DNA from: a virus
Virus record (IMG/VR): IMGVR_UViG_3300010389_000006
Span: 16,786-80,785 of that record
Reading direction: 5' to 3' (one strand)
Length of the DNA: 64,000 bases
The notes under the pieces are model-generated. The model was not told the DNA's origin, searched no databases, and was given only the letters and a program-made list of their open reading frames with translations. The position numbers and the translations under genes are program-made. Below, piece after piece: positions 22,954-64,000 of this stretch. Position 1 is the first letter of the stretch, and each line of letters begins with the position of its first letter.

Positions 22954-22991
22954 TCCATCCTAGCACCTAGGCATTTCTCTACACTAACACC

Positions 22992-23168: not shown

Positions 23169-23280
23169 CAGTTAGTGACAGTGGGGGCAGTTAATTATGC
23201 CCCCTATGTTATACTTAAGGTCGCCAAGCGGTTTCCAAAAACGCATGACTCCCCTAACCTACAAAAGTATCCAGACGACC

Positions 23281-23288
23281 GATAAATA
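23281..23288 (+). promoter_or_regulatory. T4-type late promoter
   Basis: GATAAATA at the start of the structural block. Confidence 0.55.
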
Positions 23289-23347
23289 TTTTTGAAAATG
23301 GTTTTTTGAAAACCTCAAAACGAAAAAAATTTCCCGCCAAAAAAATC

Positions 23348-23596
23348 ATGCAAAAACCTTTTGATAACTTTGAAGCAATTCTGAATGACTTTGACGGATT
23401 TTGCGATGAGTTCGAAACACGCGCCGCTGAGGCATTTATGAAAGGAGACAGTAATAATGGAAACATCGTCAGAGCAGCTACAGACAAACTTGGAGGAGAA
23501 ACTCCTAGTGTTGTTACAGAGATTAGAGAACCTGGAGATGAGGGTTTCGGCGCTGGAGAGACCCACGTTAGCGTATCGCAGACCGAGTGCGAATGA
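23348..23596 (+). CDS. Hypothetical protein
   Basis: MQKPFDNFEAILNDFDGFCDEF...; overlaps the next ORF by 140 nt. Confidence 0.55.
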   Translation: MQKPFDNFEAILNDFDGFCDEFETRAAEAFMKGDSNNGNIVRAATDKLGGETPSVVTEIREPGDEGFGAGETHVSVSQTECE

Positions 23597-23687
23597 ATAC
23601 GAAACACTCTCAGACACTCTAGACTATCTTCATAATAACGTTGAGGGGATTAAGAGAGACCTTCTAAGAGTTGCAAAAGCAGTCTAA
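23457..23687 (+). CDS. Hypothetical coiled-coil protein
   Basis: ORF track, 76 aa; TAATG coupling to the next gene. Confidence 0.7.
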   Translation: METSSEQLQTNLEEKLLVLLQRLENLEMRVSALERPTLAYRRPSANEYETLSDTLDYLHNNVEGIKRDLLRVAKAV

Positions 23688-26313: not shown

Positions 26314-26706
26314 ATGCCAACCTTTCAGACATTCAAAGATTTGAGTGTTACGTTTAAGAAGCACCCCGTCTCTGATGACCTCGTCACAGTGAAGGATAAG
26401 GCAGCTATTGTGCAGTCAATCTCCAACTTGCTTCTTACAAATAAAGGTGAAAGACCATTTCAACCAGATCTAGGGTGTGGACTACGAAATGTATTGTTCG
26501 AACCACTAGATTTTGCGTCTGCTGGTATTATCCGTTCAGAGATTACGGATACACTTAAGAAGTATGAACCAAGAATCACGGTTAATACAATTCGTGTTTA
26601 TCCTGATCAGTTGAATAATGGTTATGATGTGGAGATTACTTATACCATCGTCGGTAGAGACGACGCACCAGTAACTGTAGACATCTTTCTAGAGCGTACA
26701 CGATAA
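26314..26706 (+). CDS. gp25: Baseplate wedge subunit gp25
   Basis: FKDLS..F.KHP..DL...AIVQSISNLLLTNKGERPFQPDLG...YEPRI. Confidence 0.93.
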   Translation: MPTFQTFKDLSVTFKKHPVSDDLVTVKDKAAIVQSISNLLLTNKGERPFQPDLGCGLRNVLFEPLDFASAGIIRSEITDTLKKYEPRITVNTIRVYPDQLNNGYDVEITYTIVGRDDAPVTVDIFLERTR

Positions 26707-31500: not shown

Positions 31501-34500
31501 AGAAACGATAATGAAATTGTTCTAAAAAATGTTGTTGGAACGTTTGACAACACTGGAACGTTCTCTGCAGACATCAAGACATTCTTCATTCTTCTAGATC
31601 AAGACAGTTCTTATTCTGAGGGAGCAATCTTGAGTCTAACTGATGGTATCAATCCAACAGTAGCTAAAGGTGAAGTATTGAATGGTACAAGCAACCAGAA
31701 CGTTGTTGAAATCAAAGTTGTACCACTAAACCCAGAAGATGATCCACAAGATTGGGATCTTGGTGATTGGTTCCAATTCAACCAAGGAGAATACTTCTTA
31801 CAATCAAACAACTTCTTTAATACGTCTGGTACTAGACCAGTAACGCTAACTTCTTTGAGCGACAACCTAGAACCATTTGAAGTTAATCAAAGTGTCGCTT
31901 TGGTGGAGACTTTAGGCAACCATGGTCTAGGAATTGACGACAAGGTAGATATTACTATCTTACCAAGTGATAGCACAAAAACTAAGACCTATTATCTAAG
32001 AAAGCGTTTATATCAAAACGTAGTATTTAAGGCACCAAAATATTCTTCTACTATTTCTGATACTGGAGTTGGAAGATTCCAAATCCTTAACGGTGGTGCA
32101 GATTATGCTCCTGGTACATATACTAATGTTCCATTCACTGGTGGATCTGGAACTGGCGCAACTGCTATCATTACAGTATCTGATGCTGGTGTAGTATCAT
32201 CTATTTCCATCCAGGATAAAGGAACTGGATATAGAAAAGCAGATTATCTAGGAATTGATGATGAGTCTCTATCAAGATCTGTCGCTTCACAGAGCACACA
32301 GAGATTAACTTTGTATGTTGATCACGTTGGTTTTGCTGCTGGATCTACGAGACTTAATGTAAGTAGTGCAAATGGACTTGCAGAAGGAGACACTGTTCTA
32401 ATTGGTGAAGAAGTAATTGAGATTGCATCTATCAGTGGTAATACACTCACTGTTTTGAGAGGAAGAGAAGGAACTGTTGATAAAGATCACTATGACAAGC
32501 AACCAGTAGATATCTACAAACCAAAACTCAATTTTGTTGATAATTTCCAATTAGGTGCTGGAAACTCTGCATACATTGCTTCTTACAATCCTTCTACTCA
32601 GGAAGCAACACTTGTTTATGACTATCAAGTAGAATTAAACACTGCGGTGTCTGTAACAATCAGTACATCTTTCTTTGATAGTAGTGTTCCTTCTAGACTG
32701 GTAGCAATTCAGTCATTAGAACCAATTGCATACAAGTTTGAATTTTCCGAAGATAACGTAAACTTCACACCAAATCCAAACATTGATATTCAAGAACTAT
32801 ATCGCTATGTGTTTGATACATCACACCCATCTTTGACTGGAACTTACTTTGATCTAAGTCCAAGTAAGAATTTTAATCTTATCACAGGTGAGAAACTAGC
32901 ATCTAATACTCTTCCTGGAAATGCTGGTGCATTTACAGAAGTTAAGTTTGGTTTTGGTTCTAGAATAGCAGCAAATGATTATTCTACAGAAAGAGGAACA
33001 GACTTTACCAATTTCTATTATTTTGATAAGAATGGTATTGTAAATGCAGAAGGTTCTTTCCTTAAAATTGTAAAAGATCCTCTACAGGGCGAAAAGCGTG
33101 TAATTTATGTAACACCAAACAGATTTGTTTATAACGTATCCTCTGAACCACTCTGGGATGGATCTGGTGATATTTCTTACACCACCACAGGTCAGTTTGC
33201 TATTGGAGAAATTAAAGACTTTAAGATTACCAACCTCGGTCTAAACTATAAGAAAGTTCCTATTATCACTGGAGTTGCTCCCACACAAAACTACAGAGCA
33301 TCTGCTACTGTTTTGTTTGACTTAGAATCTAAACTAATTACTTCAGTTGAAGTTAATGAAAGAGGATCGAATTATTCAAATCCAAAGGTTGTTATAACTG
33401 ATGGAGATGGCATTGATGCGAAATTCAATGTAGTTCTAAGGGGAGGAGAAATATTCTCTATTACTGTTGCAAATCCTGGATCTGGATATACATATGCCCC
33501 TACAATTGAAATTGTAGAATCTGATGTTGAGGCATATGTTGACAGTAATACTATCGGTATTCCACAAAGCGTTAGCATCATTAGAAATGGTGGAGCATTC
33601 CACTTAGATAAGACAGTTGCATCTAACTTCACATCTAAGTATACGCTAGCATTACTATCTCCTGAAGGAAGATTTAGAAAAGGTGAGACTGTAGTACAAA
33701 AAGTTGGTGCTACTGAGGTAATGAGAGCAAAAGTAGCAGAATGGCGTCAAGGAACTAATCTATTAAAACTGGAGTCTGTAACAGGAATCGTTAGACAAAA
33801 CTTGGAAGTCCAAGGTCTTATCTCTAAATCAACAGGAACGGTAAAGGCAATTTATGCTACAACCTTCAAGGAAAAAATCACTTCTTTCTTTGACAACATT
33901 GGTTATTATAGTTCCGATAGAGGAAAGTTAGGTGTATCAAACCAAAAGATTACTGATAGTTTCTTCTATCAAGATTATTCTTATGTTGTCAAGTCTAAGA
34001 CTCCTATTGATCAGTGGCGTGAGTTAATTAAGTCAACGACACACCCTGCTGGATTCAAGTTATTTGGTCAAGTAGATATTGAAACGGATGCTCCTGTTGA
34101 AATGCCAGCAGAAGCGCCAAAGGCGTCTCACTTTACTGTTATCCAACTTTGGGATCCTAATAAGAATAAGATTACAGTTGAGAACACCAGAAGAACTATC
34201 ACTCAGACAGTTCAAAAGATTGAAAATCAGAGAATCAAGAAAGGTGTTGGTTCTGCTGCTACTTCCGAATTTAACTTTAATGAGTCAAGAGCGTTTACAG
34301 TTACTTTAAGTGCTCCTTTTGATGGTTATTTTGATAATGATGGAAGACTTCAGGGAACTACAACATTCCAACTGTTGAATGATGGAGCATTGTTCTCTCC
34401 TGCCAGTGCTAAGAATTTGGTTATTACACTTAATGGAGTTTTACAAGAACCCGAAGTAGCATATACTGTTTCTGGTGATACTATTACTTTTGCTGCTCCT

Positions 34501-37500
34501 CCACTCGGACCAGGACAAAAGTTAACAGGAAATAATCTATCAGAACTCTCTGATTATTCTGGAACTATTTTCTACGGAAGATATTTTGCTTTCAAGGACA
34601 ATCAGTATAACACAAGATATTTCAAAAAACTCAGAAATATTTTCCAGAGAAATGGAAGATGGTTAGATTCTGCAAATCAGATTGAAAGAAACAGAACTTT
34701 CATTGTTGAAGAGACAATCGGTTATGGTAGAGAGAAGTATCCATCTCTTGATTGGAGTACAAAGCAAGATGATTATGAGAGAGATCTAGGTTATGTTCTA
34801 GATGCATATGAGCATGATATTAGATTTGGCGGTAACGTCAAGACTGTTGATTATATCAATTTGTTTGGTGATGACTCAGATTATGATTATATTACAAAGA
34901 ATAAAACAGAGTCTCTAGGTATTATAAAGTATGCTACAAACTTAGCAAATCTTGCTATCAGAAATTGGGACATTGTTGAAAGTGGTGTAAGCTACATTCA
35001 AGGTTCTAGACAGATGACTGTCTCTGATACTAACAGACTTGCAGTTGGTATGCATGTAAGTTCTGGTAGAGCATATCCAGAAGAAACTAAGATTGTTTCT
35101 ATTGACAGTGATACACAAATCACACTTTCAAGAGCAGCACTTGCAAACTCAGGTGGTGGCGGTGGTGCTCCACAAGGAACAACATCTTATAGTGGAACTA
35201 GTGGTGGTGATATTGCATCTCCAACAAACACTGTTGCCATTGAACCTGGAGATACCTTTGCTGTAGAACCTGGAGATACCTTCACTGCTTCAATTTCTTT
35301 CTCTGGAAATGATGTTGCTACATTCTTCTTCAGTGGTATTAATAGTGGAACATTCTATGATGCTGCTAATTTGATTGCTGGTAATAAACTCTATCTACAA
35401 GAAGAGATTAGCGAATACATTTATGATACTTACACTCTTCCCCAAGGTGACAAAGCAAAGTGCTACAGAGATCTTGGATATTTGATTGATGCTATTGTCT
35501 ATCACCTCAAACTTGGCGGTAATCAACAGGTTGTGGAATTTGCTCGTTTGTACTATACAAACACTGGATATCCTTATGGAGAAGAATTAACATATATCAA
35601 CAGATCTGCAGAAGAAACCACTGCTGCAATTGATGCTTGGGAAAAACTAGGCGAGAAGATGATTCTTGCTATGAGAAATACTCTTGGAGCAGGAACTTAT
35701 ACATCTATTACTCCATATACAGATCTTAGTATTTCTCCAGATTCTCAAGTTCCAGAGTGTGCTGAAGTAGCATCTGCAATTAATTCATTTGTTGACATTG
35801 TTAAGGATATTATTGCAAATGGAACAGGAGCGGTTGATACTGTTAGCATCAATGCCAGTAAACCTGGAAACTGGACAGATACAAAACCATACACAGATTA
35901 TAACCTAATTCCAGATACAGATCTTCCTTACAATGGTGAGTGTGATGATGTTGTATCTTCTATCAATTCACTTTATGACAATGTATCTGATATCCTCAAT
36001 AATTCATCTGCGGTAAGAACTCTGCCCGATTATGTTGATGGTGAGAACAAAATCTTTGAGATGTATTGGGAAGATGGTAGTGAAGTTAATACTGAAGAGG
36101 ATGAAGATCTCTTCTTGACTATCAATGCTGTACTACAACGTCCAAAGTATAACGCAGATTATCCTGGTGAAGATTCTTACTACATTGATAGAACTACAAT
36201 TCCAAACAAATTAGTATTTGATGTCGCTCCTATCTGGGATCAAGATTTTGGTGCTAAGAGCATTGGTGAACCAACTGCGGTTGAAAAAGTTGTTGGTATT
36301 GGCGTTGGTAACTATAAGAGATTAACAATTGATAAGAATTTGGTTGATGGTTCTAGGACTGGTCCATTCCTGATTCTTGATGTAGAAGACGGCACTGTAC
36401 AAAGTATTGAAGACAAAGAGTTCTTATATGTCTTCCTAGATGGCGTCCTGCAGAGAGAAGGATATAGTTATACAATTTCTGGTCCAAACATTTACTTCAA
36501 TGTTCCTATTAAAAAGGAAATGAAGATTGATATGAGATATCTCTATGGTAGAGATGTCGGACAGATCCTCAATCTCTATGATTTTGCACCAGATCAGTTC
36601 TATGCAAAAGCATCTGTTGTTTTAGATGTTTCTTCTGGACTATCAAATTTAGTTTCATATACTTGGATGGGAGACAAAATTGGAACTCCAATTCATGCTT
36701 GGCAAGTTAGACCAAATGGAACAAAAAATATTCTTGGACAAGTATCAAATATTACTCCATATAATTCTACATCACAGGTAGCATTTGGTGTATTTGGATT
36801 TAAGTGCGATTTAGATACATCATTACCTCTCACATTTGCGTCTTCAGCAGATTACTCTAAGACTGTATCTATTGATATTTCTGACTATACTATTATATAC
36901 GAAACTGATGAGTTTGGAAGAACTATTCTATCAGATAATAGTCAAATTTGGTCTGGATCTTACTTAAGAAAAACATATAGAAATCCATTCTTAAGTCTTT
37001 CCAATGGAGACAACATTAGAGTTGAAGGTGAAGATAAGTTTAGAAGAATTAAGACTCTTCCAAGCAGAACAACAAGTAAGGAACAAAGACTACAAGAACA
37101 AGTATCAAACTCGTTGTTTGGTTCTGTTGATGTGGAAAGATACAATGGCATCACACGAGGTGAAGGTCTTAGTGTTGTTGCGATTATTGAAAATGGATCA
37201 GTAGTTAGACTTGAGTGGAACCAGCGTAGTTATGAACCACTTACACAACCAACAGCATATCAATACTATACTCCACCTGTACTTCACTTCATTCCTCTAG
37301 ATGGAAATGGTGGTGGTGCAAGAGCGAACGTTCTTGTAAGTAAAGGTCAGGTAATTAGTGTTGACTTAATTGATGGTGGTTCTGGATATACAGAAGCTCC
37401 AAAAGTAGAAGTTGCGAGAAGATATGATGTTCTTTCTGATAGAGACATTGGTGTTTCCTTAATTAATGTCTCTGTCAATCCTGTAGTAGAAATGCAAGGA

Positions 37501-39048
37501 TTGATCTCTCAATCAACTGTTGATGTTATTACTTTACCACCACCATTAGCATTTACATCTACTGCTGTTGTAGTTGATAGTCCAAAGAGAGTTGATATTG
37601 ATCTGGAAGCAGAGATTCAACTTCTTCGTGAAGTTAGTGAAAATCTTGCTGGATCTACTTCAGAAATTCGTTCTAGCAGACCAAATCCAGACAAGTTTGC
37701 TATTATTGATATGTTCACTGCAACAAATCAATATCTATCTCAAGTTTCTGGTCGCGTTGATAACATTATTTCTAGCTCTGTTGTAACTGCTAATAGGCAG
37801 ATTACTAGCACTGTACATAATATCATTCAAAATACTTCGCTATCTAACATTAACTACTATGAAGTTGGCGCGTTCCTTGAAGTTGATGCAGATGTAGCAG
37901 ATACTATTATCTACATTTCCGATACATCCAAGTTTAAGACAAATGGATTCTTACTAATTGGTGATGAAGTTGTACGCTACATGCGTAAACTTTCTGATAG
38001 ATTCTTAATGGTCCAGAGGGGTCAAGAAGGAACTACAGCGAAGTTCTGGCCAGCTGGAACATTTATTCGTCAGATTCCTGATCCAGTATCTGTTGCTCCT
38101 GGTGGTATTATCTCTATTGAGTCTGAGGCAAGTGTTTCTATCGTTGGTGCCGCCGCAGGTCTTGATGGTAGAACTGGTCAGGATAGAATCAGATATGAGC
38201 AGATTGAAACTCCCGATGTAACTCTAACAACAACTTCTAGAGAAATCATTGCAGAGATTCAACCCGAGTTGAATGTAGAATCTGTATCCACTATTAGTTC
38301 AAAAGTATTCTATAGACTCGAAGTTCCATTTAATATAACTCCAGTAGCTACTGTTAAAGAAGTAGAAATTGCTCAAATTAAATGTGAAATTCAAACTGTA
38401 CAAACAGAATTTAATATCAGAAAAGAAGCACTTGAAGTTGTACTAATTCCACCTCCATCTGGTGTTGTTGATGGATATCAAGAAAGTGCATTTATTTCAG
38501 ATCCAATTAAAACTAGATTAAATGGATTCGTAGATCTCTTAGATGATTATGGAGTTGTACAAAGAAATGGTAATGTAATTTACGTAAGAAATTCCGTTTT
38601 TGGAACTGGTTCGGAATATATTGGTCAATACACAAAGACTAATGCTGGTCATACAATTAGTCATTTTAATGGAATTTTTGATACTGGAGTTTGTAATGTT
38701 TCTGGTGTGTCATTCCTAGAAATAGATCTACATTTCTCTTCTTTGACACTTAGAGATTTTGAGTTGAGAGGAAATTCAAGTTATACTCTGAATGGAGATA
38801 AATTTACTCTGATGCCTCCATCAATTCAAAATCCTGTTGCTATTAGCTCTTCTTCTGGAACAATAGGAGGTCCAATTGTTGTACAAGATACAACATACTT
38901 CCCAGATGAAGGTTATCTCTTCACCAGTGGCGGTACTGTTGTACAATACACAAGCAAGACTACCACAACATTTGAAGGATGTACATTGTATAGTGGACCA
39001 GATTCTATCAGCAATGGTGATGAATTAGTTCCATTCTCAATTGTCTAA
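28507..39048 (+). CDS. gp7: Giant baseplate wedge initiator gp7 (3513 aa)
   Basis: RISTLIESQLPEFI; LIKNINKFYKAKGT; FYQDYSYVVKS...W...K...HPAG; lies between gp6 and gp8. Also contains a YHYH-like segment (SPILGFAYDGNPIYGP...LDENNGRF) and phycobiliprotein-like helical domains. Confidence 0.85.
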   Translation: MAAVKTKRISTLIESQLPEFIATEYELFAKFVQKYYEAQEVQGGTLDIISNIQKYADIDFYEKNLLKQNDTLAVSISDTDTTIVVNDASSFPAKNGYIRINDEIIFYSNRTDTEFLNCSRGVSGNTTLGDLYTESNFTSTEATSHNANVKVYNVSNLFLYAFVKNFESQYLGSFPEKYLRGEVDKRTLIKNINKFYKAKGTDSSIKFIFNTIVSQDVTNKPEVYKPKDFTYKVSKSDWVNVYALKVKVISGDPTDLIGKQIVQPETEEYGYVSATVDNARAEGTFDGEKIWNIVLAPETVTGEFAISTKTRLEKNISQADSVGKRINVFSTIGWGKTGEVLIGEETIKFDDKNVTQFTISKRGNITYNHEAGASVYKPVVISGSNVKLLTLGVVYNFEINDSHPYSAVDDTIEISNPGFESADPKIVNTGSNQTRWILNRNLPINAPTVPYVGTQLGQTSTDVSAIFADDQYYYITSSGYPSYKILDGSDVSQTVEDQKLLRIIRRLATRTTEKYKTPKTEVGILLNGVRLYGYKDTDSIRYGTLEQIVPDRQGSGYVKPPFVLLDGAPNKARAVLSGSVVERYIVDTNNIFPRTPVVEVTSGRGASVRAVVTGDKITSLVVENPGEYYSSPPIVRITDSNGKGRFAEYNAIVDTDGKLVDFEKIAEGNFYDQRTVKVDIIAVGNGAIGTPLLKEWNFNRYEKLKTVLDTENGYLFPNYNITFENGYGQVANPKALRVALNDNLSAAGLEPSTKTHSPILGFAYDGNPIYGPFAHQNPLDSQSPIVRMTSSYVRNSSRSGGPSVSDYPLGTFTNDYTYKHKNGSLDENNGRFCITPEFPEGVYAYFLTIDSNQVPQYPYILGENFYSLPVDSNYNSDINQNDIPKASKRLFTLGMQGNGSGVFAKINEVKPGTVDNITIENSSSNFSVNSKVYFDNKGTNGSEAEALVNSVKGKPVSYIDSYENKVVKLTTIQNAYLFTDDILRQPSSNASGQIVGNVRNDNEIVLKNVVGTFDNTGTFSADIKTFFILLDQDSSYSEGAILSLTDGINPTVAKGEVLNGTSNQNVVEIKVVPLNPEDDPQDWDLGDWFQFNQGEYFLQSNNFFNTSGTRPVTLTSLSDNLEPFEVNQSVALVETLGNHGLGIDDKVDITILPSDSTKTKTYYLRKRLYQNVVFKAPKYSSTISDTGVGRFQILNGGADYAPGTYTNVPFTGGSGTGATAIITVSDAGVVSSISIQDKGTGYRKADYLGIDDESLSRSVASQSTQRLTLYVDHVGFAAGSTRLNVSSANGLAEGDTVLIGEEVIEIASISGNTLTVLRGREGTVDKDHYDKQPVDIYKPKLNFVDNFQLGAGNSAYIASYNPSTQEATLVYDYQVELNTAVSVTISTSFFDSSVPSRLVAIQSLEPIAYKFEFSEDNVNFTPNPNIDIQELYRYVFDTSHPSLTGTYFDLSPSKNFNLITGEKLASNTLPGNAGAFTEVKFGFGSRIAANDYSTERGTDFTNFYYFDKNGIVNAEGSFLKIVKDPLQGEKRVIYVTPNRFVYNVSSEPLWDGSGDISYTTTGQFAIGEIKDFKITNLGLNYKKVPIITGVAPTQNYRASATVLFDLESKLITSVEVNERGSNYSNPKVVITDGDGIDAKFNVVLRGGEIFSITVANPGSGYTYAPTIEIVESDVEAYVDSNTIGIPQSVSIIRNGGAFHLDKTVASNFTSKYTLALLSPEGRFRKGETVVQKVGATEVMRAKVAEWRQGTNLLKLESVTGIVRQNLEVQGLISKSTGTVKAIYATTFKEKITSFFDNIGYYSSDRGKLGVSNQKITDSFFYQDYSYVVKSKTPIDQWRELIKSTTHPAGFKLFGQVDIETDAPVEMPAEAPKASHFTVIQLWDPNKNKITVENTRRTITQTVQKIENQRIKKGVGSAATSEFNFNESRAFTVTLSAPFDGYFDNDGRLQGTTTFQLLNDGALFSPASAKNLVITLNGVLQEPEVAYTVSGDTITFAAPPLGPGQKLTGNNLSELSDYSGTIFYGRYFAFKDNQYNTRYFKKLRNIFQRNGRWLDSANQIERNRTFIVEETIGYGREKYPSLDWSTKQDDYERDLGYVLDAYEHDIRFGGNVKTVDYINLFGDDSDYDYITKNKTESLGIIKYATNLANLAIRNWDIVESGVSYIQGSRQMTVSDTNRLAVGMHVSSGRAYPEETKIVSIDSDTQITLSRAALANSGGGGGAPQGTTSYSGTSGGDIASPTNTVAIEPGDTFAVEPGDTFTASISFSGNDVATFFFSGINSGTFYDAANLIAGNKLYLQEEISEYIYDTYTLPQGDKAKCYRDLGYLIDAIVYHLKLGGNQQVVEFARLYYTNTGYPYGEELTYINRSAEETTAAIDAWEKLGEKMILAMRNTLGAGTYTSITPYTDLSISPDSQVPECAEVASAINSFVDIVKDIIANGTGAVDTVSINASKPGNWTDTKPYTDYNLIPDTDLPYNGECDDVVSSINSLYDNVSDILNNSSAVRTLPDYVDGENKIFEMYWEDGSEVNTEEDEDLFLTINAVLQRPKYNADYPGEDSYYIDRTTIPNKLVFDVAPIWDQDFGAKSIGEPTAVEKVVGIGVGNYKRLTIDKNLVDGSRTGPFLILDVEDGTVQSIEDKEFLYVFLDGVLQREGYSYTISGPNIYFNVPIKKEMKIDMRYLYGRDVGQILNLYDFAPDQFYAKASVVLDVSSGLSNLVSYTWMGDKIGTPIHAWQVRPNGTKNILGQVSNITPYNSTSQVAFGVFGFKCDLDTSLPLTFASSADYSKTVSIDISDYTIIYETDEFGRTILSDNSQIWSGSYLRKTYRNPFLSLSNGDNIRVEGEDKFRRIKTLPSRTTSKEQRLQEQVSNSLFGSVDVERYNGITRGEGLSVVAIIENGSVVRLEWNQRSYEPLTQPTAYQYYTPPVLHFIPLDGNGGGARANVLVSKGQVISVDLIDGGSGYTEAPKVEVARRYDVLSDRDIGVSLINVSVNPVVEMQGLISQSTVDVITLPPPLAFTSTAVVVDSPKRVDIDLEAEIQLLREVSENLAGSTSEIRSSRPNPDKFAIIDMFTATNQYLSQVSGRVDNIISSSVVTANRQITSTVHNIIQNTSLSNINYYEVGAFLEVDADVADTIIYISDTSKFKTNGFLLIGDEVVRYMRKLSDRFLMVQRGQEGTTAKFWPAGTFIRQIPDPVSVAPGGIISIESEASVSIVGAAAGLDGRTGQDRIRYEQIETPDVTLTTTSREIIAEIQPELNVESVSTISSKVFYRLEVPFNITPVATVKEVEIAQIKCEIQTVQTEFNIRKEALEVVLIPPPSGVVDGYQESAFISDPIKTRLNGFVDLLDDYGVVQRNGNVIYVRNSVFGTGSEYIGQYTKTNAGHTISHFNGIFDTGVCNVSGVSFLEIDLHFSSLTLRDFELRGNSSYTLNGDKFTLMPPSIQNPVAISSSSGTIGGPIVVQDTTYFPDEGYLFTSGGTVVQYTSKTTTTFEGCTLYSGPDSISNGDELVPFSIV

Positions 39049-55082: not shown

Positions 55083-58000
55083 ATGAGTTTTCATATTAAT
55101 TCCGATAAAGAAAAGATTAGAGGCGTAAACCCTAAACTCATCGGTGATAATGAAGCTACTATTAGAGTTGGTACTGGAACTGACGAGCGAGAAGTATTTC
55201 GTGCTCAGTTAGATCCAAATACCAATTTGCCCAGAATTGGTATTAACAGAACTGGTCAAAGAGTAAATAACATTGAGATTACTCAAGGTGGTACTGGATA
55301 TACTCAAGTTCCTCTTGTAGAACTTTCTGCTCCACCAGCTGGCGGAACTCAAGCACTTGCATCTGCTTTTATTTTCAATGGAAGAATTTCTTCTATTGCT
55401 GTAAATGATCCTGGCAGTGGATACACTTCACCCCCATTAGTAACTATCACTGGCGGTAATGGTGCTGGTGCTGCTGCCGAAGCGTTCCTTGATACAGTTG
55501 ACTTTGAACTTGATATCAATGGTGCTATTAGAACTTCTACATCTATCATTTCTGATACTGCTAGAGTTCTAAACCTTGATATTGAAAACTTTGTTACTCC
55601 AGACTTAGCACTCAGAGGTCCAAGTCTAAAAACATACATGAATGGAACTGGAACCATTTGGAGTTCCAATGTAATCCTTCAAAAAGGAGATTACAGATAT
55701 TTTGGTCAAAACGTTTATGAGGCACTTAACTCTGGTCAAACTGGAGTTCTTGGACCTGAACATAGTGATGGCATTGAACTGAATGGAGAAGTAAGATTTA
55801 AGCATATTGGTTTTAGAGTTGTAGATCCAAATAATGAACTGTATCTACAAACTGGAGAAGCAGGATTATTCCCACGTTCAATTACACCTCAACTTGGTGA
55901 TAGATCAGATAGAATTGCTACAACAGAATACGTCCTCAACCTAGCAACGAATGACGTTGGTGGTCGTATCTATGTTTCCGAACAGATTGGTTCCGATCTA
56001 AACGATGGTCGTTCAGCTGTAAACCCAGTTAGAACCATCAAGAAAGCGGCGCAACTTGCTTGGGAAACGGTTGGCGTAAAAGAAACTATTATTGTTTCTG
56101 GTGGTGATTATGTAGAAGATAACCCAATTTCACTCCCACCAGATGCTTCGGTTGTTGGTGATAACTTGCGTCTTGTTATCATTAGACCAGGAAATCCAAA
56201 CAAGCACATCTTTAAGTTTGGTGATAAAAACTATGTAACTGGTGTTACGTATAGAGACCAAGTTGATTCAAACGGAGACCCAGTAGCAACTTGGGACTTT
56301 GCTATGGTCTTTGACGACAAGCAAAGAATTTCTATTGACTATGATGCTAATGGCGATTTTGGAACATCATTCCCAATTGGTCATCAAATTTTTGGTCCAA
56401 ACAGATTTAGAGTTACTTTCCAGAATAACACAGGTCTTTCAGATCTACAGACTGGCGTTGAAGTTGTTGGTGTCAACACTGGTGCTAGAGCAAATGTTCT
56501 AGATGTCATATTCAACTCAACAACTGGAGCAAATGCGTATGTTTCTGGAACACTTGATGTTGAACTATCATCTGGTTCTTTCGTTGAGGGTGAGCAATAC
56601 GACTACCTTATATCATCAACAACTGGACCAGCAATTGCTCTAACTATTTCTCAGACTGCTGGGGAAAACACTCTTAGATTTACTGATGATCCAGAATCAA
56701 CCATTCCAGCTGGAACATATGTTTTCCTAGATGATACAACTGATGCTAATTTTACTCAAGGTTATTATCAGGTAGGATCTATTGATGACGCCAATGCTCC
56801 AACATACTGGGATGTAAACTTTGTTCCTGTTTTAGGATCTCCTGGATGGGATAGTTCCACTTCAGCATCAATTACTATCAATGAAGCATCTCCTGATATT
56901 GAAACGTTTGATACAACCAGACTAAGATCAATTAGAGCTGAAGGTGAGGTTGTTTCTGTTGATGAGGATATTACAACAACTTTACCAATTGTAAGACTTG
57001 ACTTCTCACTACAAGGAGATCCCAGTATTGCTACTGGTGGTTTCCAAGAAGCACAGTTTGGTAGTGCTGAAGATCTTGGTGGTGTTGTTTTCTACACCAG
57101 TGATCTTGTAGGAAGAACCAATACCCACGAGTTCAAAGAGGGTCAGGAAATCATCATCACTGGAATGCCAGTGGCAAACCCAGACCTTTCTGCGTTGAAT
57201 GGTAAGCAAAGAATTTATAAAGTTCTTGAGGATGCTGACGGTAGAGCAAGAAGATTTGTTATTCCTAAGAAGTTTCCATCAATTGCTAATCCAGATCTAG
57301 ATCCTGGTGAATTTGCCACGGTTCAGTCTTACTCAAAAGTAATTACACTTTCACTACTAAACTCACCAAACAAGTTCCAACTTACAACTCCAACTGATAG
57401 AAGATATCAGGATGCTTGTCAACTCATCAGAAACAACAGAGATTTTATTGCTGATGAAGTTGTAGGACGTATCAACGATGAGTTCAAGAAAGAATATTAC
57501 TCAGCATATAACATTGATACGGTAAACAACACTTTTGATATTTTCCTAGGAACAAGCAACTTTGCTCATACTTATGTAAGTGGCGGAACTGTATACTTTG
57601 GAGCAACTCCATACACGATCACGGATTTTGTTTGGGACAATCTTAGCACTGGTGTTGCTACTATTACTCTAAGCACTGCTCCTGGTTTTGTTGAAGATGA
57701 TATTATTAGAATAGAAGATATTCTAGTTTCATGTGCTAATGGCGAAAAGTTATATCCAAGTTTTAGCATCCCCGTAGATGATGATCAGTGCCGTCAAGAC
57801 ATTGTTCACTTCTTGAATGCTCTAGTAAGAGACCTTGAGTTTGGAAGCAACCACAACGTCTTAGAAGCAGGTTCTAAGTATATCACTGGAGCTAAGATTG
57901 GATATGTAGAGAATGAGATTGTTCAAACCGTCCGTGCTATTGAGTATGCCAGAGAGTTGGCAATCTATGCGATGTGTAATTGGAGAATTGGAAACAGAAC

Positions 58001-61000
58001 TCCTGGTGATCCTCTATATGCTCCACAGTATTCTACACTTGACAGATATTTTGATGATACTGTTATTACAGCAACTGCTGGAACACCAGCTTGTTCTAAC
58101 GTAGCATCTGCTATTACAACACTATCATATTTGTTTATTGATGTTGTTGCCAACAACACAAGTGGAACTTATCTAGACGCAGCATACCTAATCGCAAGAA
58201 ACAAAGATCTCATTGCTCATCAGGCACTCCTAGATACCCAATCACAGTATCCTACACTAGGTCTTTCAAATACACACGAAAGAAAGTGCCTCAGAGACAT
58301 TGGATATGTTCTAAGAGGTCTCATCAGGGATCTGTGCCTTGGTGGAAACGCTGGAACAGTTACAGCAGCAAAAGCGTACTTTACTGCTAATGTTCTATCT
58401 GGTGTTGATGTAGATCAGATTGAAGAAACAAGATACGCTTATACCAAGGTAAGAGATTACGCTATTGACGCAATGCGTAATTGGACTGATGGTGCTGGAA
58501 CACCAGTAACAACATCATCAGATATTCCACAATTCACAGATGGAACTATTCTGGCAGATCCAGGAAGTCCAGATTGCGCCAATGTAGCATCATCAATTGG
58601 CACTCTGATGGGAATTCTTGATGCAATTCTTGAGTATGGTGAAGATAGCGAAAGTCCAACTGCTACTGCTCCAACATCTGTAATTGAGAATTATGGAACT
58701 CTATATGATATTTCAGAAATTATTACTTACCCAGATAGCTATCTTACTGATTTTAATAATCAAGTAGTAGCAATTCGTGGCGACTATGATGACTATCCAA
58801 TTATTGAAGCCTCACCTTATACACAGAATGCATCTGTCATTTCATTCTTAGGGGGTGGCGGCGCTAGAGTTGATGGTTCTAAGGTCAAACAACCCAACTG
58901 TCCTTTCCCTGGTCTAGAATTAGATGGAACAGCATCATTCCCCAACCAAGGTAAGTCCATGGTTGCTGCTGCTTTCACCATTGTATCTTTTGGTGGAACG
59001 GGATATGAAATTATCAATGATGGTTATACTCAGTTAGTTTCTGTCTTCGTTATCTTCTGTGCTGACGGTGTTCTTGCCGAATCTGGTGGATATGCTTCTA
59101 TCACAAACTCAGCAACAAACTTTGGACAATATGCTTTAAGAGCAACTGGATATAGAGACGAAGCATATGAATTTGACGTTGCTACTGTAGATGTTGTATC
59201 TCAGACAGCAACTGGAAGAACTACACTTACTATTTCTGGTATAGGAAGAGAACCACTTGAGCACTATGTCTGTAAGTTTGATGGTTTCTCCAATTTTGAT
59301 GACGAAACAGAATACTTTATTGATTCTGTAAGTCAGGTTTCTGTTGGACCTCCTTTCTCCGCTACTATCACCATTGATGATGGAACTGGAACTCCACTAG
59401 AACTTATCAGAGATTCTGATGGTGCTGTAATTACTGGTCTAACAAACTTACAGAATGCTCTAACACCACAAGGTCAGAACGCTACAATTAGACTACACAG
59501 ACCATCTATTGTTAATAGTTCTTCTCACACTTGGGAATATGCTGGTTCTGGTACTAACTACCTTGCTCTTCCAGAGAACGGTGGTACTAAGATAGAAGCA
59601 TTTGAGCAAGTATCTGAGAACTATGGTAGAGTCTATTGTTCTGGTACGGACGAACTTGGTGACTTCAAAGTTGGTACTTTTGCTAGAATTGAAAACAGAA
59701 CTGGTAATATTACCTTTACTGGTACAGTTACGATCTCGGAAGTTGAATTCCTCAAACTGAAGGGTGGAGACGTTGTTGTTACTGGTTTTGACGCATCCAA
59801 TACTCTTGGTGGTGCTAACGCAACCGACTCCAAACTACCAACTCAAAAAGCAGTTAGAGATTACATCACCAACAACCTTGGTCCATACATCAACAAACCA
59901 TATTCAACCAACGCTGTTCCTAGAGCACTAGTCGAACTTACTGATTCTGGTAAGATTTCTCTAGATCAGATTCCCGCTCTAAGACCATTCAGTGTCTACA
60001 CTGTTGCTGATGAAGCAGAAAGACTTTCGATTGAAGGGGCACTTGCTGGTGATATTGCTATTCAGCAAGACACATCAACATCGTTTATTCTAAACAACGA
60101 TCTCGATAGTCTATTCCTTGGTTTTGCTGTAGACCCAACGCTACAATTTACCAATCAAAATATTTACACTGGAACACCTTCTACGGGAAGAATTCAAGCA
60201 ACTGAATACAGAGAAGGTGTTGTATATCAAATCAATATCACTGATGGTGGATCTGGTTATACAGTAGCACCAACGGTTACAATTTCTGGTGGTAGTCCAG
60301 ACCCCAATGGATCAGTTCCTGCTACAGCATCATGTACCATTGCAAATGGTGAAGTTGTTACAGTAACTATTACTGAGAATGCTGGATATAGGGGTGGTTA
60401 TGGATACACAGCACAACCTATTGTAACCTTTACTGCTCCTCCTGGTGCTGGAACACAAGCAACTGGTAATGCTTTTATAGAAAGCAGACTATATGGTGAT
60501 GTTGTCAACAGAATCAAAATGCTTGACACAGATAATTTTGATGACGATCTCGGAAATACAATTAATATTACTCGTGTTGTAAATACTTCTGCTTCCGATA
60601 TCAACAACTGGGTATCTCTATCTAGTGATTCTGTTTCTGTTGGAACTCTTGTTGGTCCTGGTGTTATTTCCACAACCTTACTTGGTACTGGAGCAGCAAA
60701 CTCATTCACATTCCTTAGAGGCGACGAAAGTTATGCTCTAGCAGTTCAATCTCTCAAGGGTGCTGAATCTAGATACTTTGCTCAACTATATTCAACTGCT
60801 ACTGTAGGATCTGCTCAACTTATCTTTACAACAAACTCCAATACTCTAATTGGACACGAAGTTAAACCAACGGTTGCTGGTATTGCTAACGACACCTCAA
60901 TCAATGGTGTTGTAACTACTGGAGGTTTGACAACTGTATCAATCAATAATCCACTAACAGCAGAAATACCTGCGGGAACTGTTATTGAATTTGAAAGAGG

Positions 61001-64000
61001 ATCTTCTCCACTACTATTTGAATCTTCATATACTCAGGGTGGATTTATTGATCAATTAGTTATTGGAAATGGTGGTACTAATTATACCGATGGTCAGTAT
61101 TTTGATGTTGGAATTGATGGTGGTGCTGGAACTGGACTAAGAGCAAATATTGTTGTTTCTGGTGGAACAGTTACTGAAATTACTGTTACAAACTCTGGAA
61201 CTGGATACACAAATGACTTTACCGTCAATCCAAATCCAGCAGATATTGGTGCTGGATCTAACCTAGTTTTACTAGCAAAAACTAGCACAGTAAACAGACA
61301 GTATGCGAACGTATCTCTTGACATTCAGAGAGTTTCCGATCTTACTATTTCTGCCGATGAATATGGAACTATTGGTGTTGCTAGATTCCTCAAGTCTCAG
61401 TTCAAAATTGGAGAATCTGGAAACGGATCTATTGACATTAGAACAGGTCCTGATAGTGGACTAGATGCTGACTTACTTGACGGCGCACAAGGCGCTTTCT
61501 ATACAAACGCATCCAACATTAGTTCTGGAACTTTAGATTCTGATCGTCTATCTGGAACATATAACATCTCAATTTCTGGTCAATCGGCAAACACGATTCG
61601 TCTATTGACTGGTACATCAAACCCATCTTCAAACCCACTACCCAAGGATTTTGCTCAAGGTATTGTTCTAAACAGTGTCTTCAATAGTTCAAATGGACTA
61701 TCAACTGCATATCCATCTGTAACAGGTATTGATCCTAACGATCCAAACTCAACTCCCACATCGACAAAACATCTTGTAATGTCGATCAGAACTGAGGGTA
61801 GCGGTATTTCAACTGCTGCTGGTGTTAGACAACTAGCATTTGCTGATGATGATAGCATCTACACTCGTGGTTCTGGAAGTGAAGCAGGACAATCAACTAC
61901 ATTTGGATCATGGAATAAGATTTGGAGTTCTGGAAACCATGGTCTAGATAGTGGACTTGATGCTGATAAACTTGATAACAAGCAAGGTCTTTGGTATCAA
62001 GATGGTTGGAACATCAAAACAAATGAGTTGTTTGATACCAGAATGCCACGCTGGTTAAGCCCAACTAAGTTCAGAAATCAACTAGAAATTAAATCGTATT
62101 CTGGAACAGATACTTATTATAGAATTCTTGTAAGAGAGAATCTTCCTATTGATCCAGGTGGAGATTATGAACCAAACTCCCAAATTAATGTTTATGATGC
62201 TAACTTCCAAGACATTAGTGATTTCTTCATTACCGATGCCTTCCGAAATGTAGATATTGATGATCCAACAAATACTTACACAATGCTTATCGGAAGACTT
62301 CCTTCTGGTGGTGATATTACTCTTGCTAAGTATATTGGTTTCGCTGGCGAAGAAAAAGTATTTGAAAACTATGAAATCTATGATACAAATACTTACACCG
62401 TATCAAAACTAGGAAATGATAGTGGAGATGCATTTTTACAGTTAGGAAGAAGAGATGGTGTAGCATCTTCACAACCATACATTTGGTTTAATTCTTCATT
62501 ATTCCCAGCACTAGATGGAAATGGAGATCCATCATATAATGCTGCCATTGTTGCTAGTGGAGGAGATGCCACTACAGGATCAGGAACACTAGAATTCCTA
62601 GTAGCAAATGAAAATGCGGTAGAGATCAATGGTTCTGTTATCTGGAACGCATCAAACGTAGCGTTTAACAATACAAACGTTGTTACAACATATCTAGAAG
62701 ATGGAACTACTCCAAACCTAAGATCAGCAGTAATGCGCGATGGTTTTGGAAACTTCTCTGCTGGAACAATTACTGCTTCTCTAACTGGTGCCGCTTCACT
62801 CAACGTGTTGAAGACTGGAGACACCATGACTGGTGCTCTGCTAATTACGAATGTCGGTGCTACAACAACTGCTCTTAGTGTTTCTGGTAAAGGTGTATTC
62901 CTTGCTGGTGCTACCGTTGCCGCTGACTTTGCCGTTGATACTGGAACACTCTATGTGAATTCCACAAACAACAGAGTAAGCATCAACACTCCAGTTGATG
63001 GTGGAACAGGCGCATTTATTGAAACCAATCCACTGAAGTTGAATGTTTATGATGCTAACCAATCACTAGCATTCCAGAGTGATACGGCGCTTACAGCAAA
63101 TACAAGTTTCTATCAATTCTCTATCTTCAATAAGGTTGATGGTGGCGAATCTGGATTGATTCTACAACATGGCGATGGAGAAGTAGCACAGTGGGGTATT
63201 TCTACTGTAAGAACTGGAAATTATGTTGGCGATCTTATCTTTAGAACGAGAGTTGCTAATTCACAAAATTCCAAGAGACTTACTCTTACAAATGGTGGCA
63301 ATCTAATTCCAGCGACAACAAATGCTCAATCTGTTGGTAGCAGCACGAATAAGTGGCAAGAGATTTATACACACATTTCTCTAGTTCAAGATAGTGTAAG
63401 AATTGGAGATGCTTCCGCTAATGCCGAGGCAGATGTTCAATTCAAGGGTGCTAGTGCTTCTCCTGGTGGCGGTAGAAACTTCCGTATTGGTAATAACATC
63501 GGTGCTGGTGTTGATGTATTTGCTATCTATTCTTCTGGAACTGATGGTGGTATTGACTGGAAGAATACTCTCGGAACTCCAGAAGCTCCAGCATTAGCAA
63601 TTCAAGGTGCTAATAATAGAATTGGTATTAATACCACAGAATTTAGTGGAATTGATAATTCGGATGAAGAAAATCCAATTACAAGAAACTATATTCTAAA
63701 CGTTCAGGGAGATATGAACCTGAATGGTATTCTTTATCAAAACAATGAGGAATTTGTAACTTCAAGATGGACAGAATCTAGCGATTTTGATGGAGCAAAT
63801 ATTTACAGATTGTCTTATGTTGGTATCAACAAAGAAGATCCACAATATGCTCTGGATGTTTCTGGTGATCTTAATATGACTGGCGTTCTAAGAGTTAATG
63901 GAACTGCTCAGTGGTTAGATTCTTATGGCATTATTAAAGTTACTAATTCACTCATCGCAGAAGACGTAACAATTCCATCTGGAACAATTGCATATAGTAA
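55083..64000 (+). CDS. Giant tailspike/tail-fibre protein, 3'-truncated (at least 2972 aa); absent from the ORF track
   Basis: ATG 55083 (MSFHINSDKEKIRG...). The frame reads open wherever checked and at the window end (...EDVTIPSGTIAYS). Pectin-lyase-like beta-helix signatures (IYVSEQIGSDLNDG...PVRTIKKAAQLA; SVVGDNLR; SPYTQNASVIS; SITNSATNFG), two phycobiliprotein-like inserts, and C-terminal fibre repeats (RIGINT, LNVQGD). Confidence 0.85.
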   Translation, partial: MSFHINSDKEKIRGVNPKLIGDNEATIRVGTGTDEREVFRAQLDPNTNLPRIGINRTGQRVNNIEITQGGTGYTQVPLVELSAPPAGGTQALASAFIFNGRISSIAVNDPGSGYTSPPLVTITGGNGAGAAAEAFLDTVDFELDINGAIRTSTSIISDTARVLNLDIENFVTPDLALRGPSLKTYMNGTGTIWSSNVILQKGDYRYFGQNVYEALNSGQTGVLGPEHSDGIELNGEVRFKHIGFRVVDPNNELYLQTGEAGLFPRSITPQLGDRSDRIATTEYVLNLATNDVGGRIYVSEQIGSDLNDGRSAVNPVRTIKKAAQLAWETVGVKETIIVSGGDYVEDNPISLPPDASVVGDNLRLVIIRPGNPNKHIFKFGDKNYVTGVTYRDQVDSNGDPVATWDFAMVFDDKQRISIDYDANGDFGTSFPIGHQIFGPNRFRVTFQNNTGLSDLQTGVEVVGVNTGARANVLDVIFNSTTGANAYVSGTLDVELSSGSFVEGEQYDYLISSTTGPAIALTISQTAGENTLRFTDDPESTIPAGTYVFLDDTTDANFTQGYYQVGSIDDANAPTYWDVNFVPVLGSPGWDSSTSASITINEASPDIETFDTTRLRSIRAEGEVVSVDEDITTTLPIVRLDFSLQGDPSIATGGFQEAQFGSAEDLGGVVFYTSDLVGRTNTHEFKEGQEIIITGMPVANPDLSALNGKQRIYKVLEDADGRARRFVIPKKFPSIANPDLDPGEFATVQSYSKVITLSLLNSPNKFQLTTPTDRRYQDACQLIRNNRDFIADEVVGRINDEFKKEYYSAYNIDTVNNTFDIFLGTSNFAHTYVSGGTVYFGATPYTITDFVWDNLSTGVATITLSTAPGFVEDDIIRIEDILVSCANGEKLYPSFSIPVDDDQCRQDIVHFLNALVRDLEFGSNHNVLEAGSKYITGAKIGYVENEIVQTVRAIEYARELAIYAMCNWRIGNRTPGDPLYAPQYSTLDRYFDDTVITATAGTPACSNVASAITTLSYLFIDVVANNTSGTYLDAAYLIARNKDLIAHQALLDTQSQYPTLGLSNTHERKCLRDIGYVLRGLIRDLCLGGNAGTVTAAKAYFTANVLSGVDVDQIEETRYAYTKVRDYAIDAMRNWTDGAGTPVTTSSDIPQFTDGTILADPGSPDCANVASSIGTLMGILDAILEYGEDSESPTATAPTSVIENYGTLYDISEIITYPDSYLTDFNNQVVAIRGDYDDYPIIEASPYTQNASVISFLGGGGARVDGSKVKQPNCPFPGLELDGTASFPNQGKSMVAAAFTIVSFGGTGYEIINDGYTQLVSVFVIFCADGVLAESGGYASITNSATNFGQYALRATGYRDEAYEFDVATVDVVSQTATGRTTLTISGIGREPLEHYVCKFDGFSNFDDETEYFIDSVSQVSVGPPFSATITIDDGTGTPLELIRDSDGAVITGLTNLQNALTPQGQNATIRLHRPSIVNSSSHTWEYAGSGTNYLALPENGGTKIEAFEQVSENYGRVYCSGTDELGDFKVGTFARIENRTGNITFTGTVTISEVEFLKLKGGDVVVTGFDASNTLGGANATDSKLPTQKAVRDYITNNLGPYINKPYSTNAVPRALVELTDSGKISLDQIPALRPFSVYTVADEAERLSIEGALAGDIAIQQDTSTSFILNNDLDSLFLGFAVDPTLQFTNQNIYTGTPSTGRIQATEYREGVVYQINITDGGSGYTVAPTVTISGGSPDPNGSVPATASCTIANGEVVTVTITENAGYRGGYGYTAQPIVTFTAPPGAGTQATGNAFIESRLYGDVVNRIKMLDTDNFDDDLGNTINITRVVNTSASDINNWVSLSSDSVSVGTLVGPGVISTTLLGTGAANSFTFLRGDESYALAVQSLKGAESRYFAQLYSTATVGSAQLIFTTNSNTLIGHEVKPTVAGIANDTSINGVVTTGGLTTVSINNPLTAEIPAGTVIEFERGSSPLLFESSYTQGGFIDQLVIGNGGTNYTDGQYFDVGIDGGAGTGLRANIVVSGGTVTEITVTNSGTGYTNDFTVNPNPADIGAGSNLVLLAKTSTVNRQYANVSLDIQRVSDLTISADEYGTIGVARFLKSQFKIGESGNGSIDIRTGPDSGLDADLLDGAQGAFYTNASNISSGTLDSDRLSGTYNISISGQSANTIRLLTGTSNPSSNPLPKDFAQGIVLNSVFNSSNGLSTAYPSVTGIDPNDPNSTPTSTKHLVMSIRTEGSGISTAAGVRQLAFADDDSIYTRGSGSEAGQSTTFGSWNKIWSSGNHGLDSGLDADKLDNKQGLWYQDGWNIKTNELFDTRMPRWLSPTKFRNQLEIKSYSGTDTYYRILVRENLPIDPGGDYEPNSQINVYDANFQDISDFFITDAFRNVDIDDPTNTYTMLIGRLPSGGDITLAKYIGFAGEEKVFENYEIYDTNTYTVSKLGNDSGDAFLQLGRRDGVASSQPYIWFNSSLFPALDGNGDPSYNAAIVASGGDATTGSGTLEFLVANENAVEINGSVIWNASNVAFNNTNVVTTYLEDGTTPNLRSAVMRDGFGNFSAGTITASLTGAASLNVLKTGDTMTGALLITNVGATTTALSVSGKGVFLAGATVAADFAVDTGTLYVNSTNNRVSINTPVDGGTGAFIETNPLKLNVYDANQSLAFQSDTALTANTSFYQFSIFNKVDGGESGLILQHGDGEVAQWGISTVRTGNYVGDLIFRTRVANSQNSKRLTLTNGGNLIPATTNAQSVGSSTNKWQEIYTHISLVQDSVRIGDASANAEADVQFKGASASPGGGRNFRIGNNIGAGVDVFAIYSSGTDGGIDWKNTLGTPEAPALAIQGANNRIGINTTEFSGIDNSDEENPITRNYILNVQGDMNLNGILYQNNEEFVTSRWTESSDFDGANIYRLSYVGINKEDPQYALDVSGDLNMTGVLRVNGTAQWLDSYGIIKVTNSLIAEDVTIPSGTIAYS

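Follow-up and report, generated by a model that had tools for sequence, protein, structure and literature searches.

The window, a stretch of 64,000 nucleotides from the IMG/VR record IMGVR_UViG_3300010389_000006, is part of a T4-like cyanomyovirus. Two giant structural ORFs in it contain helical modules that resemble phycobiliproteins (PBPs), two in each ORF, and the coordinates of these features are collected in Table 1.

Table 1. Module-bearing ORFs in the window and their PBP-like features.
Feature	Position	Strand	Details
gp7-like giant baseplate-wedge/virion structural ORF	28507..39048	+	3513 aa; two modules (copies A and B)
Copy A, helices A-G	34654..35031	+	gp7-like ORF; profile search
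Copy B, complete	35344..35835	+	gp7-like ORF; K-C-Y-R-D; second Cys in P-E-C-A-E-V
Orphan helix-H-like segment (G-E-C-D-D-V-V-S-S-I)	35887..36027	+	3' of copy B; weak match, E 0.17
Giant tail-fibre-like structural ORF	55083..63998	+	2972 aa, open at the 3' end of the window
Unit 1, helices A + B of PBP-like module	57396..57494	+	aa 772-804; hmmsearch profile A2 positions 2-34; helices in AF2 model
Unit 1, beta-rich insert in B-E loop	57495..57755	+	~87 aa; gap between profile segments; AF2
Unit 1, helices E-H	57756..58154	+	hmmsearch profile + AF2 model
Unit 2, uninterrupted PBP-like module	58161..58652	+	aa 1027-1190; intact K-C-L-R-D site and second Cys
Unit 2, Cys1069-Leu-Arg1071-Asp1072 codons	58287..58298	+	hhalign mapping
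Unit 2, Cys1165, start of helix H	58575..58577	+	aligned with PBP beta Cys153 bilin site

The tail-fibre-like ORF is a homologue of the S-RSM4 protein SRSM4_146, annotated as 'tail fiber protein', and a member of phrog_5342. Its two tandem helical units had been noticed in a sequence-only reading, and the peptides quoted there from the ORF were all found as written, as were the four cysteine codons at 57789 (TGC, aa 903), 58092 (TGT, aa 1004), 58287 (TGC, aa 1069) and 58575 (TGC, aa 1165). The beta-helix of a tailspike, in which the units were said to lie, was not confirmed, as searches with the flanks of the units against Pfam and PDB sequences returned no match. The proposed split of unit 1 does hold: helices A and B are followed by the insert, for which eight strands are predicted at a pLDDT of about 80-89 in the AF2 model, and then by helices E-H. 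The site in unit 1 reads C-R-Q-D, with the cysteine at 57789 and the aspartate kept and a glutamine at the arginine position, and the second cysteine of this unit is the one at 58092.

The gp7-like ORF sits between gp6-like (26706-28502) and gp8-like (39102-40949) genes. The site of copy A is D-Y-E-R-D, where tyrosine replaces the cysteine and the arginine and aspartate are retained. Copy B appears to be nested within the G-H loop of copy A, and the orphan segment probably represents helix H of copy A in a displaced position. PHROGs assignments and gene order place the module-bearing proteins in the baseplate and tail-fibre module.

Cyanobacteria, red algae and cryptophytes use phycobiliproteins as soluble subunits of their antennae. 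The reference motifs given in the sequence-only reading were compared with actual PBPs from a marine Synechococcus genome. The match of KCLRDIGYVLR in unit 2 with KCARDIGYYLR in CpcA is indeed 9/11, an identity that none of 300 shuffles of unit 2 reached. Likeness of the helix A/B segment to CpcB 38-66 was also borne out, at 10/29 identical positions instead of the 9/29 counted earlier, and at the beta-153 position PDCANVASSIGTLMG and CpcB GDCASLNSEIGTYFD agree in 7/15. For helix G the ungapped identity fell away (4/15, in the wrong place), and what stands is that hhalign aligns the G helices. By hhalign, Cys1069, Arg1071 and Asp1072 of unit 2 are equivalent to PBP beta Cys82, Arg84 and Asp85 (alpha Cys84, Arg86 and Asp87), a bilin site on helix E, and Cys141 of the unit (aa 1165) is paired with CpcB Cys153.

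Sequence profiles, profile-profile alignment and fold comparison strongly support the earlier proposal of phycobiliprotein-like folds with both bilin-site cysteines correctly placed, and the units belong to a large domain family, hitherto without a name, within the phycobiliprotein (globin-like) superfamily. Scores of single sequences are weak. PF00502 matches unit 2 with E 0.006 and 17 bits, under its gathering score of 22.2 (E 0.006-0.012 for Pfam matches below this score), and a phmmer search of the PDB with the region gives E 0.027, with PBP alpha chains as all of the top 11 matches. If these scores stood by themselves, one might suppose that a helical segment resembles PBPs by chance or convergence and shares no ancestor with them, but we judge this very improbable, and the likeness is well beyond chance. 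Among 150 family members PF00502 is the sole recurrent Pfam match (55/150 at E<=0.1, best 8e-6), other families being matched by two members or fewer each; this pattern fits a remote homologue, not a member by Pfam's own cut-off. Searches of the PDB with profiles reach E 9e-5 (11 sequences) and 2e-5 (150 sequences), and nearly all of the top 60 matches are PBPs. Against seven Synechococcus PBPs, hhalign gives a probability of 95.8% and E 8e-9, with viral residues 4-159 on CpcB 35-171. It is therefore almost certain that the modules are homologous to PBPs, i.e. true relatives of the light-harvesting proteins of the host.

The module retains the helical core of the globin-like fold, made up of helices A, B, E, F, G and H, and its nearest fold is that of the PBP beta subunits, whereas other globin-like folds give only weak structural matches (E 0.1-1). 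The N-terminal X/Y hairpin, through which PBP alpha and beta chains pair into alpha-beta monomers, is absent: alignments begin at PBP residue 28-38, and where PBPs have X/Y, each module is preceded by another module or by fibre sequence.

The family comprises 1228 cluster representatives. The modules, each of about 150-165 residues, are built into giant proteins of the baseplate wedge and tail fibres of T4-like cyanophages; some stand alone, others form tandem arrays of up to 34 copies per protein, lie nested, or are interrupted by inserted beta domains. The module is present in 14 of the 16 T4-like cyanophage genomes (genera) that were sampled. No stand-alone module or PBP was found among short proteins, where the homologue search gave only fragments of giant proteins, and a scan of genome contigs with the 11-sequence alignment returned one locus, in a 194-kb phage genome binned as a Synechococcus MAG. 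Among 50,697 phage records the module was found only in cyanophages; tblastn with four divergent copies matched 344, 58, 11 and 325 records, all of them Synechococcus, Prochlorococcus, 'Cyanophage' or 'Marine' phages, whereas a control search with gp6 retrieved 2366 T4-like records, mostly from non-cyanobacterial hosts. The objection that such motifs might be common in phages of non-photosynthetic hosts consequently fails, and the host restriction makes it plausible that the modules are host-derived. The literature searched contained no earlier account of PBP-like domains in structural proteins of phages.

Conservation was counted over about 1520 copies from 150 cluster representatives. At a mean identity of about 20%, the cysteine is kept in 98%, the arginine in 94% and the aspartate in 99% of copies, and the triad is complete in 1413/1524, unit 1 (Gln for Arg) and copy A (Tyr for Cys) being exceptions. 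The best-conserved positions map onto the PBP invariants C82, R84, D85, G100 and Y117; Asp59 (95%) and Asn65 (83%) are conserved in the family and absent from PBPs. A single cysteine is all that 74% of near-full-length copies possess, so an intradomain disulfide cannot explain the conservation of this residue, which disposes of a structural disulfide as a general explanation. The second, beta-153-like cysteine is present in units 1 and 2, in copy B, in most complete copies of isolate phages and in about 45% of metagenomic copies extending to that column.

Judged from these sequence features, the chances that bilins are attached to the modules, so that the virion carries pigment, seem to us evenly balanced. 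The modules would receive phycoerythrobilin or phycocyanobilin inside the infected cyanobacterium, through a thioether bond with the C-x-R-D cysteine and, in copies that have it, also with the second cysteine; attachment would be autocatalytic or brought about by lyases of the host (S/U- and T-type). Bilins numbering from tens to hundreds would in this way be displayed on the baseplate and fibres of the assembled virion, and the chromophores could render fibre or baseplate conformation, and hence adsorption, light-responsive. Attachment is made less certain by the missing X/Y helices, and lyases may not recognise such a module as a substrate. We are aware of no report of coloured or fluorescent cyanophage virions, and estimate that about 100-200 bilins per virion would amount to only about 0.5% of the DNA absorbance.

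T-type lyases act on the beta-153 position (PMC10452541). Phage CpeT is a candidate lyase for the beta-153-like site of the modules. The cpeT gene occurs in 11/14 module-bearing and 0/2 module-less genomes (one-sided Fisher p about 0.08, from a small table that ignores phylogeny), and three module-bearing phages are without it. It lies 1-3 kb upstream of the module-bearing giant gene, on the same strand, in S-PM2, S-RSM4, S-WAM2 and S-RIM44, and in a second clade 3-6 kb upstream of a gene with 13-22 copies, with an adjoining ho1 at one locus (L018); within each clade this synteny represents common descent. The second cysteine does not track cpeT, as B23 and ACG-2014d keep the cysteine without the gene. 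Nor do ho1 and the bilin reductases track the module, since they are present in Prochlorococcus phages including P-SSM2, which has no module; phage bilin-synthesis genes are therefore independent of it. No cpeT, ho1 or bilin reductase was found in the source record of the window, an 85-kb, 45%-complete fragment whose gene content does not speak for the whole phage. A predicted complex of a P0011 module with the neighbouring CpeT scored 0.00, in a model where the module folded poorly and no alignment was given, and this score counts neither for nor against an interaction. Phage CpeT reportedly bound PEB tightly in the hands of Gasper et al. in 2017, without transfer to the host beta subunit. 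A tie between the cyanophage bilin genes (cpeT, ho1, pebS/pcyA) and virion proteins has not been proposed in the literature searched.

A serious, if not a probable, alternative to bilin attachment is that the module is an apo, PBP-derived helical domain that serves as a rigid spacer, knob or receptor-binding unit, with C-x-R-D, G-G-N and the tyrosine kept for family-specific folding, packing or assembly. Tolerance of insertions, nesting and long tandem arrays, as seen for structural repeats, is in keeping with such a role, as are the absent X/Y hairpin, the family-specific Asp59 and Asn65, the phages that lack cpeT, and the want of reports of pigmented virions. It is more difficult to reconcile with the finding that, at about 20% identity, conservation is highest at precisely the residues by which PBPs hold their bilin, residues for which we know of no structural role in PBPs. 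In an extracellular protein, a single free cysteine retained at 98% demands a chemical role, and the restriction of the family to phages of bilin-making hosts likewise speaks against a purely apo module.

Conservation of the Cys/Arg/Asp pocket indicates function and leaves the identity of the ligand unspecified, so that the pocket might serve other chemistry, with another tetrapyrrole, a metal or a host surface molecule as ligand, or form an inter-subunit cross-link that stabilises the fibre. Virion proteins act extracellularly, most commonly in receptor binding, and the copies of isolate phages mostly carry two cysteines. We nevertheless consider this distinctly unlikely: the two cysteines align with beta-82 and beta-153, which are far apart in PBP structures, most metagenomic copies have a single cysteine, and an arginine and an aspartate next to the cysteine are the PBP solution for the propionates and pyrrole nitrogens of a bilin.

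A bilin on the virion could explain the light requirement of some cyanophages for attachment. Adsorption of P-HM1 and P-HM2 fails in the dark, that of S-PM2 is light-dependent and independent of photosynthesis, and P-SSM2 adsorbs without light (PMC6628666). S-PM2, P-HM1 and P-HM2 carry the module and P-SSM2 does not, a correlation over four phages. A light-sensing role of the module is speculative, and we regard it as unlikely that the modules are holo-biliproteins acting as the phage's own photoreceptor, in which light shifts the conformation and licenses adsorption. If true, this would explain the light-dependent, photosynthesis-independent adsorption of the three phages, a phenomenon known for long, and supply phage cpeT with a virion substrate; we know of no earlier light-sensing virus particle, and this would be the first.

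With its chromophore site under strong selection, the PBP fold proves to be a highly abundant structural unit in the baseplates and fibres of cyanophages. If a bilin is carried, a light-sensitive element of light-dependent adsorption, the substrate of phage CpeT and the reason for the confinement of bilin genes to cyanomyoviruses all become testable. Even an apo module would be a clear case of a host photosynthesis fold turned into virion hardware, and the 'hypothetical', 'structural' and 'tail fiber' annotations of module proteins could be refined.

The non-haem globin at the N-terminus of RsbR, the MAP3K HisK-N-like globin and the globin-coupled sensors share the superfold of the module, but are far more distant from it than PBPs, with no C-x-R-D site and no sequence signal. 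The cyanophage cpeT, ho1 and pebS/pcyA genes are common to the same phage group as the module, whereas they encode soluble enzymes whose presumed substrates are the antenna proteins of the host. Unlike the PBP beta subunits (CpcB, CpeB/MpeB; PF00502), the viral module lacks the X/Y helices, and therefore no alpha-beta monomer or ring assembly is expected; given this absence and the embedding in fibres, (alpha-beta)3 rings or phycobilisome rods built from modules are unlikely. The module further differs from these subunits in being phage-encoded outside antenna operons, in forming part, frequently in many copies, of virion proteins 2000-8000 residues long, and in having its own conserved Asp59, a G-G-N motif and a long G-H loop. 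A split match resembling that of ApcE, the core-membrane linker, was observed in a 1045-aa frame in the search of one genome (G001). ApcE itself belongs to the phycobilisome of the cell and has only one PBP domain, and its attachment cysteine is at a different position. As for the viral proteins, however, the PBP-fold domain of ApcE belongs to a large multidomain protein and is interrupted by an inserted loop, and it reportedly attaches its bilin autocatalytically, which provides a precedent for a PBP module that functions in a setting other than the classical alpha-beta one.

By its sequence, the window comes from the genome of a T4-like cyanomyovirus (Kyanoviridae), with S-RSM4 and S-H9-1 as the nearest isolates in sequence comparison. 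It spans the baseplate gene module, which holds two more giant structural ORFs besides the gp6-, gp7- and gp8-like genes and the 3'-open ORF at 55083. Four copies of a helical module of about 150–165 residues are present: units 1 and 2, in tandem, in the 55083 ORF, and copies A and B in the gp7-like ORF. The sequence-only reading had taken units 1 and 2 to be phycobiliprotein-like domains with bilin-site cysteines, and the peptides and four Cys codons that it quoted all lie at the exact positions it gave. Its phycobiliprotein motifs agree with real Synechococcus phycobiliproteins in three segments of four (9/11, 10/29 and 7/15 identical), whereas the helix-G segment does not hold up in ungapped identity.

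Positions of the modules and of the genes and motifs discussed with them
Feature	Sequence	Position	Remark
2OG-Fe(II) oxygenase gene region	window	4095–4715	
2OG-Fe(II) oxygenase gene region	L051 (S-PM2)	5308–5889	S-PM2p220
2OG-Fe(II) oxygenase gene region	L017 (S-RSM4)	20314–24682	
gp6-like gene	window	26706–28502	
gp7-like giant ORF	window	28507–39048	
Copy A	window	34654–35031	gp7-like ORF
Copy B	window	35344–35835	gp7-like ORF
Apparent nested region	window	34654–36027	gp7-like ORF
gp8-like gene	window	39102–40949	
3'-open ORF	window	55083–63998	homologue of S-RSM4 'tail fiber protein' SRSM4_146
Gly-rich motif	window	55083–55500; about 60100–60400; about 61000–61250	55083 ORF
Unit 1	window	57396–58154	55083 ORF
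Insert in B–E loop	window	57495–57755	unit 1
Unit 2	window	58161–58652	55083 ORF

That the modules are homologous to phycobiliproteins and share their fold can be regarded as established, with little room for doubt. The sole Pfam match of the 2972-aa protein encoded by the 55083 ORF is PF00502 (Phycobilisome protein), located in unit 2 and under the gathering score, and when the module region was compared by phmmer with all PDB sequences, the first 11 of 12 matches were phycobiliprotein alpha chains. The signal rises as the profile deepens: an 11-sequence profile reached E 9e-5 against the PDB, with phycobiliproteins making up nearly all of the top 60, and a profile of 150 highly diverse copies (20% mean identity per column) reached E 2e-5, matching both alpha and beta chains, in some cases over the whole module. 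PF00502 is matched individually by 55 of these 150 sequences, and every other Pfam family by at most two. With reference phycobiliproteins from one marine Synechococcus genome, hhalign aligned viral residues 4–159 with CpcB 35–171 (probability 95.8%, E 8e-9). A fold search of AlphaFold DB clusters placed phycobilisome protein first, other globin-like folds scoring far weaker, and from the fold-search results the module corresponds to the A-B-E-F-G-H core of a phycobiliprotein of beta-like type, without the N-terminal X/Y hairpin. A predicted model of residues 765–1195, of lower confidence (pLDDT 70), folds unit 1 likewise, its B–E loop holding a beta insert of eight strands; this insert of about 87 residues is itself predicted at pLDDT 80–89. 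In the related phages L005–L015, a different insert of about 65 residues lies in the G–H loop of unit 2. Copy B, together with about 100 further residues, seems to lie inside the G–H loop of copy A, helix H of which probably recurs after copy B, so that one domain appears nested within its own kind.

The family to which the modules belong is large and had gone unrecognised: when 1.84 billion cluster representatives were searched exhaustively with a profile, 1228 proteins matched at E≤0.001. The top 150 are mostly 1000–8000 residues long and match in as many as 34 stretches each, and the 6382-residue P0003 carries a copy every 150–170 residues over its entire chain. Nearly all the sequence of P0003, P0004 (5984 residues) and P0011 (L018 10001–18784), all metagenomic, consists of 22–34 tandem modules, most with a single Cys; ho1 and cpeT lie just upstream in the clade of P0011. 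In BFVD the same fold is confined to giant proteins of cyanophages and uncultured phages, none named phycobiliprotein-like, and no description of such domains in phage structural proteins was found in the literature searched, a search with subscription journals and automatic InterPro-type annotations outside it.

The bilin-site residues are strongly conserved. Conservation across about 1520 copies is 98%, 94% and 99% in the columns that correspond to Cys82, Arg84 and Asp85 of phycobiliproteins, and 1413 of 1524 copies have all three residues. Tyr75 (99%) and Gly63 (75%) map to phycobiliprotein Tyr117 and Gly100, and Asn16 of the module is 97% conserved. An intradomain disulfide as the reason for keeping the Cys is excluded, since 74% of near-full-length copies have exactly one. 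Where helix H begins, there may be a second Cys, which hhalign aligns with the beta-153 bilin site; most complete copies from isolate phages have it, as do about 45% of the metagenomic copies that extend far enough to cover the position. Both bilin-type sites are intact in unit 2 and copy B; unit 1 has Gln in place of the triad Arg, and Tyr replaces the triad Cys in copy A.

The module is also restricted in host range. In tblastn against 50,697 phage records, four divergent copies (344, 58, 11 and 325 records) matched only Synechococcus, Prochlorococcus, 'Cyanophage' or 'Marine' phages; the gp6 control returned 2366 T4-like records, the majority from enterobacterial, Vibrio and other hosts. 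A match labelled as a Nanopelagicaceae MAG, on a 2-kb contig and 65% identical to S-PM2, is in all likelihood a phage fragment placed in the wrong bin. Short cyanophage fibre fragments (P0074/P0164) are assigned to Nanopelagicaceae MAGs, and an entire T4-like cyanophage genome, L019 (JBJBBP010000001.1, 193,981 bp), stands as contig 1 in a Synechococcus MAG; both cases look like contamination of public genomes through binning.

By profile search, 14 of the 16 cyanomyovirus genomes sampled have the module, whereas P-SSM2 and MA01 lack it, the former absence being confirmed by unfiltered whole-genome hmmsearch. Eleven of these 14 genomes have the bilin-related gene cpeT, and neither of the other two does (one-sided Fisher p about 0.08, uncorrected for relatedness). 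In S-PM2, S-RSM4, S-WAM2 and S-RIM44, cpeT is on the same strand as a giant module-bearing gene named 'short tail fiber' and 1–3 kb upstream of it. A comparable layout occurs in a second clade, of metagenomic origin: in L018, adjacent ho1 and cpeT precede the 22-copy gene by about 5 kb, and among 17 related IMG/VR loci, 14 have a 9–22-copy gene with cpeT 3–6 kb upstream; the other three extend at most about 5 kb downstream of cpeT, so that a gene at such a distance may fall past the contig end.

Several further features of these loci were noted. The 55083 ORF protein carries at its N-terminus, and at two later positions, a Gly-rich motif (G-G-x-G-Y-T...P-x-V-x-I...G-G-x-G-A) that matches phrog_460/phrog_438-type segments. 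Genes for 2OG-Fe(II) oxygenases recurrently adjoin giant structural genes, and in S-PM2 one separates cpeT from the giant gene; virion proteins may be their substrates. In the RefSeq record of S-PM2 (NC_006820.1 168556–173383), 16 tRNA features have coordinates within the giant 11-kb 'short tail fiber' CDS and bear its locus tag, apparently through an error of annotation or of coordinates.

Covalent bilin binding by the modules, predicted from sequence, would account most economically for the conservation pattern, host restriction and cpeT association, and we consider its prospects evenly balanced. The main rival, that the modules are apo structural or receptor-binding domains, is a lesser but real possibility. 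A strict link between module and bilin genes is disfavoured, because ho1 and bilin reductases are present in Prochlorococcus phages, the module-less P-SSM2 included, and because the second Cys is independent of cpeT presence. We know of no reports of coloured cyanophage virions; this is weak evidence, since an estimated 100–200 bilins would raise the absorbance of a virion only about 0.5% above that of its DNA.

If the modules do bind bilins, a light-sensing role of the virion is conceivable, but it is speculative and improbable. P-SSM2 is able to adsorb in the dark, P-HM1 and P-HM2 do not, and adsorption of S-PM2 needs light independently of photosynthesis (PMC6628666). With four phages the comparison is an anecdote and not a test: the module is not found in P-SSM2, and is found in P-HM1, P-HM2 and S-PM2.
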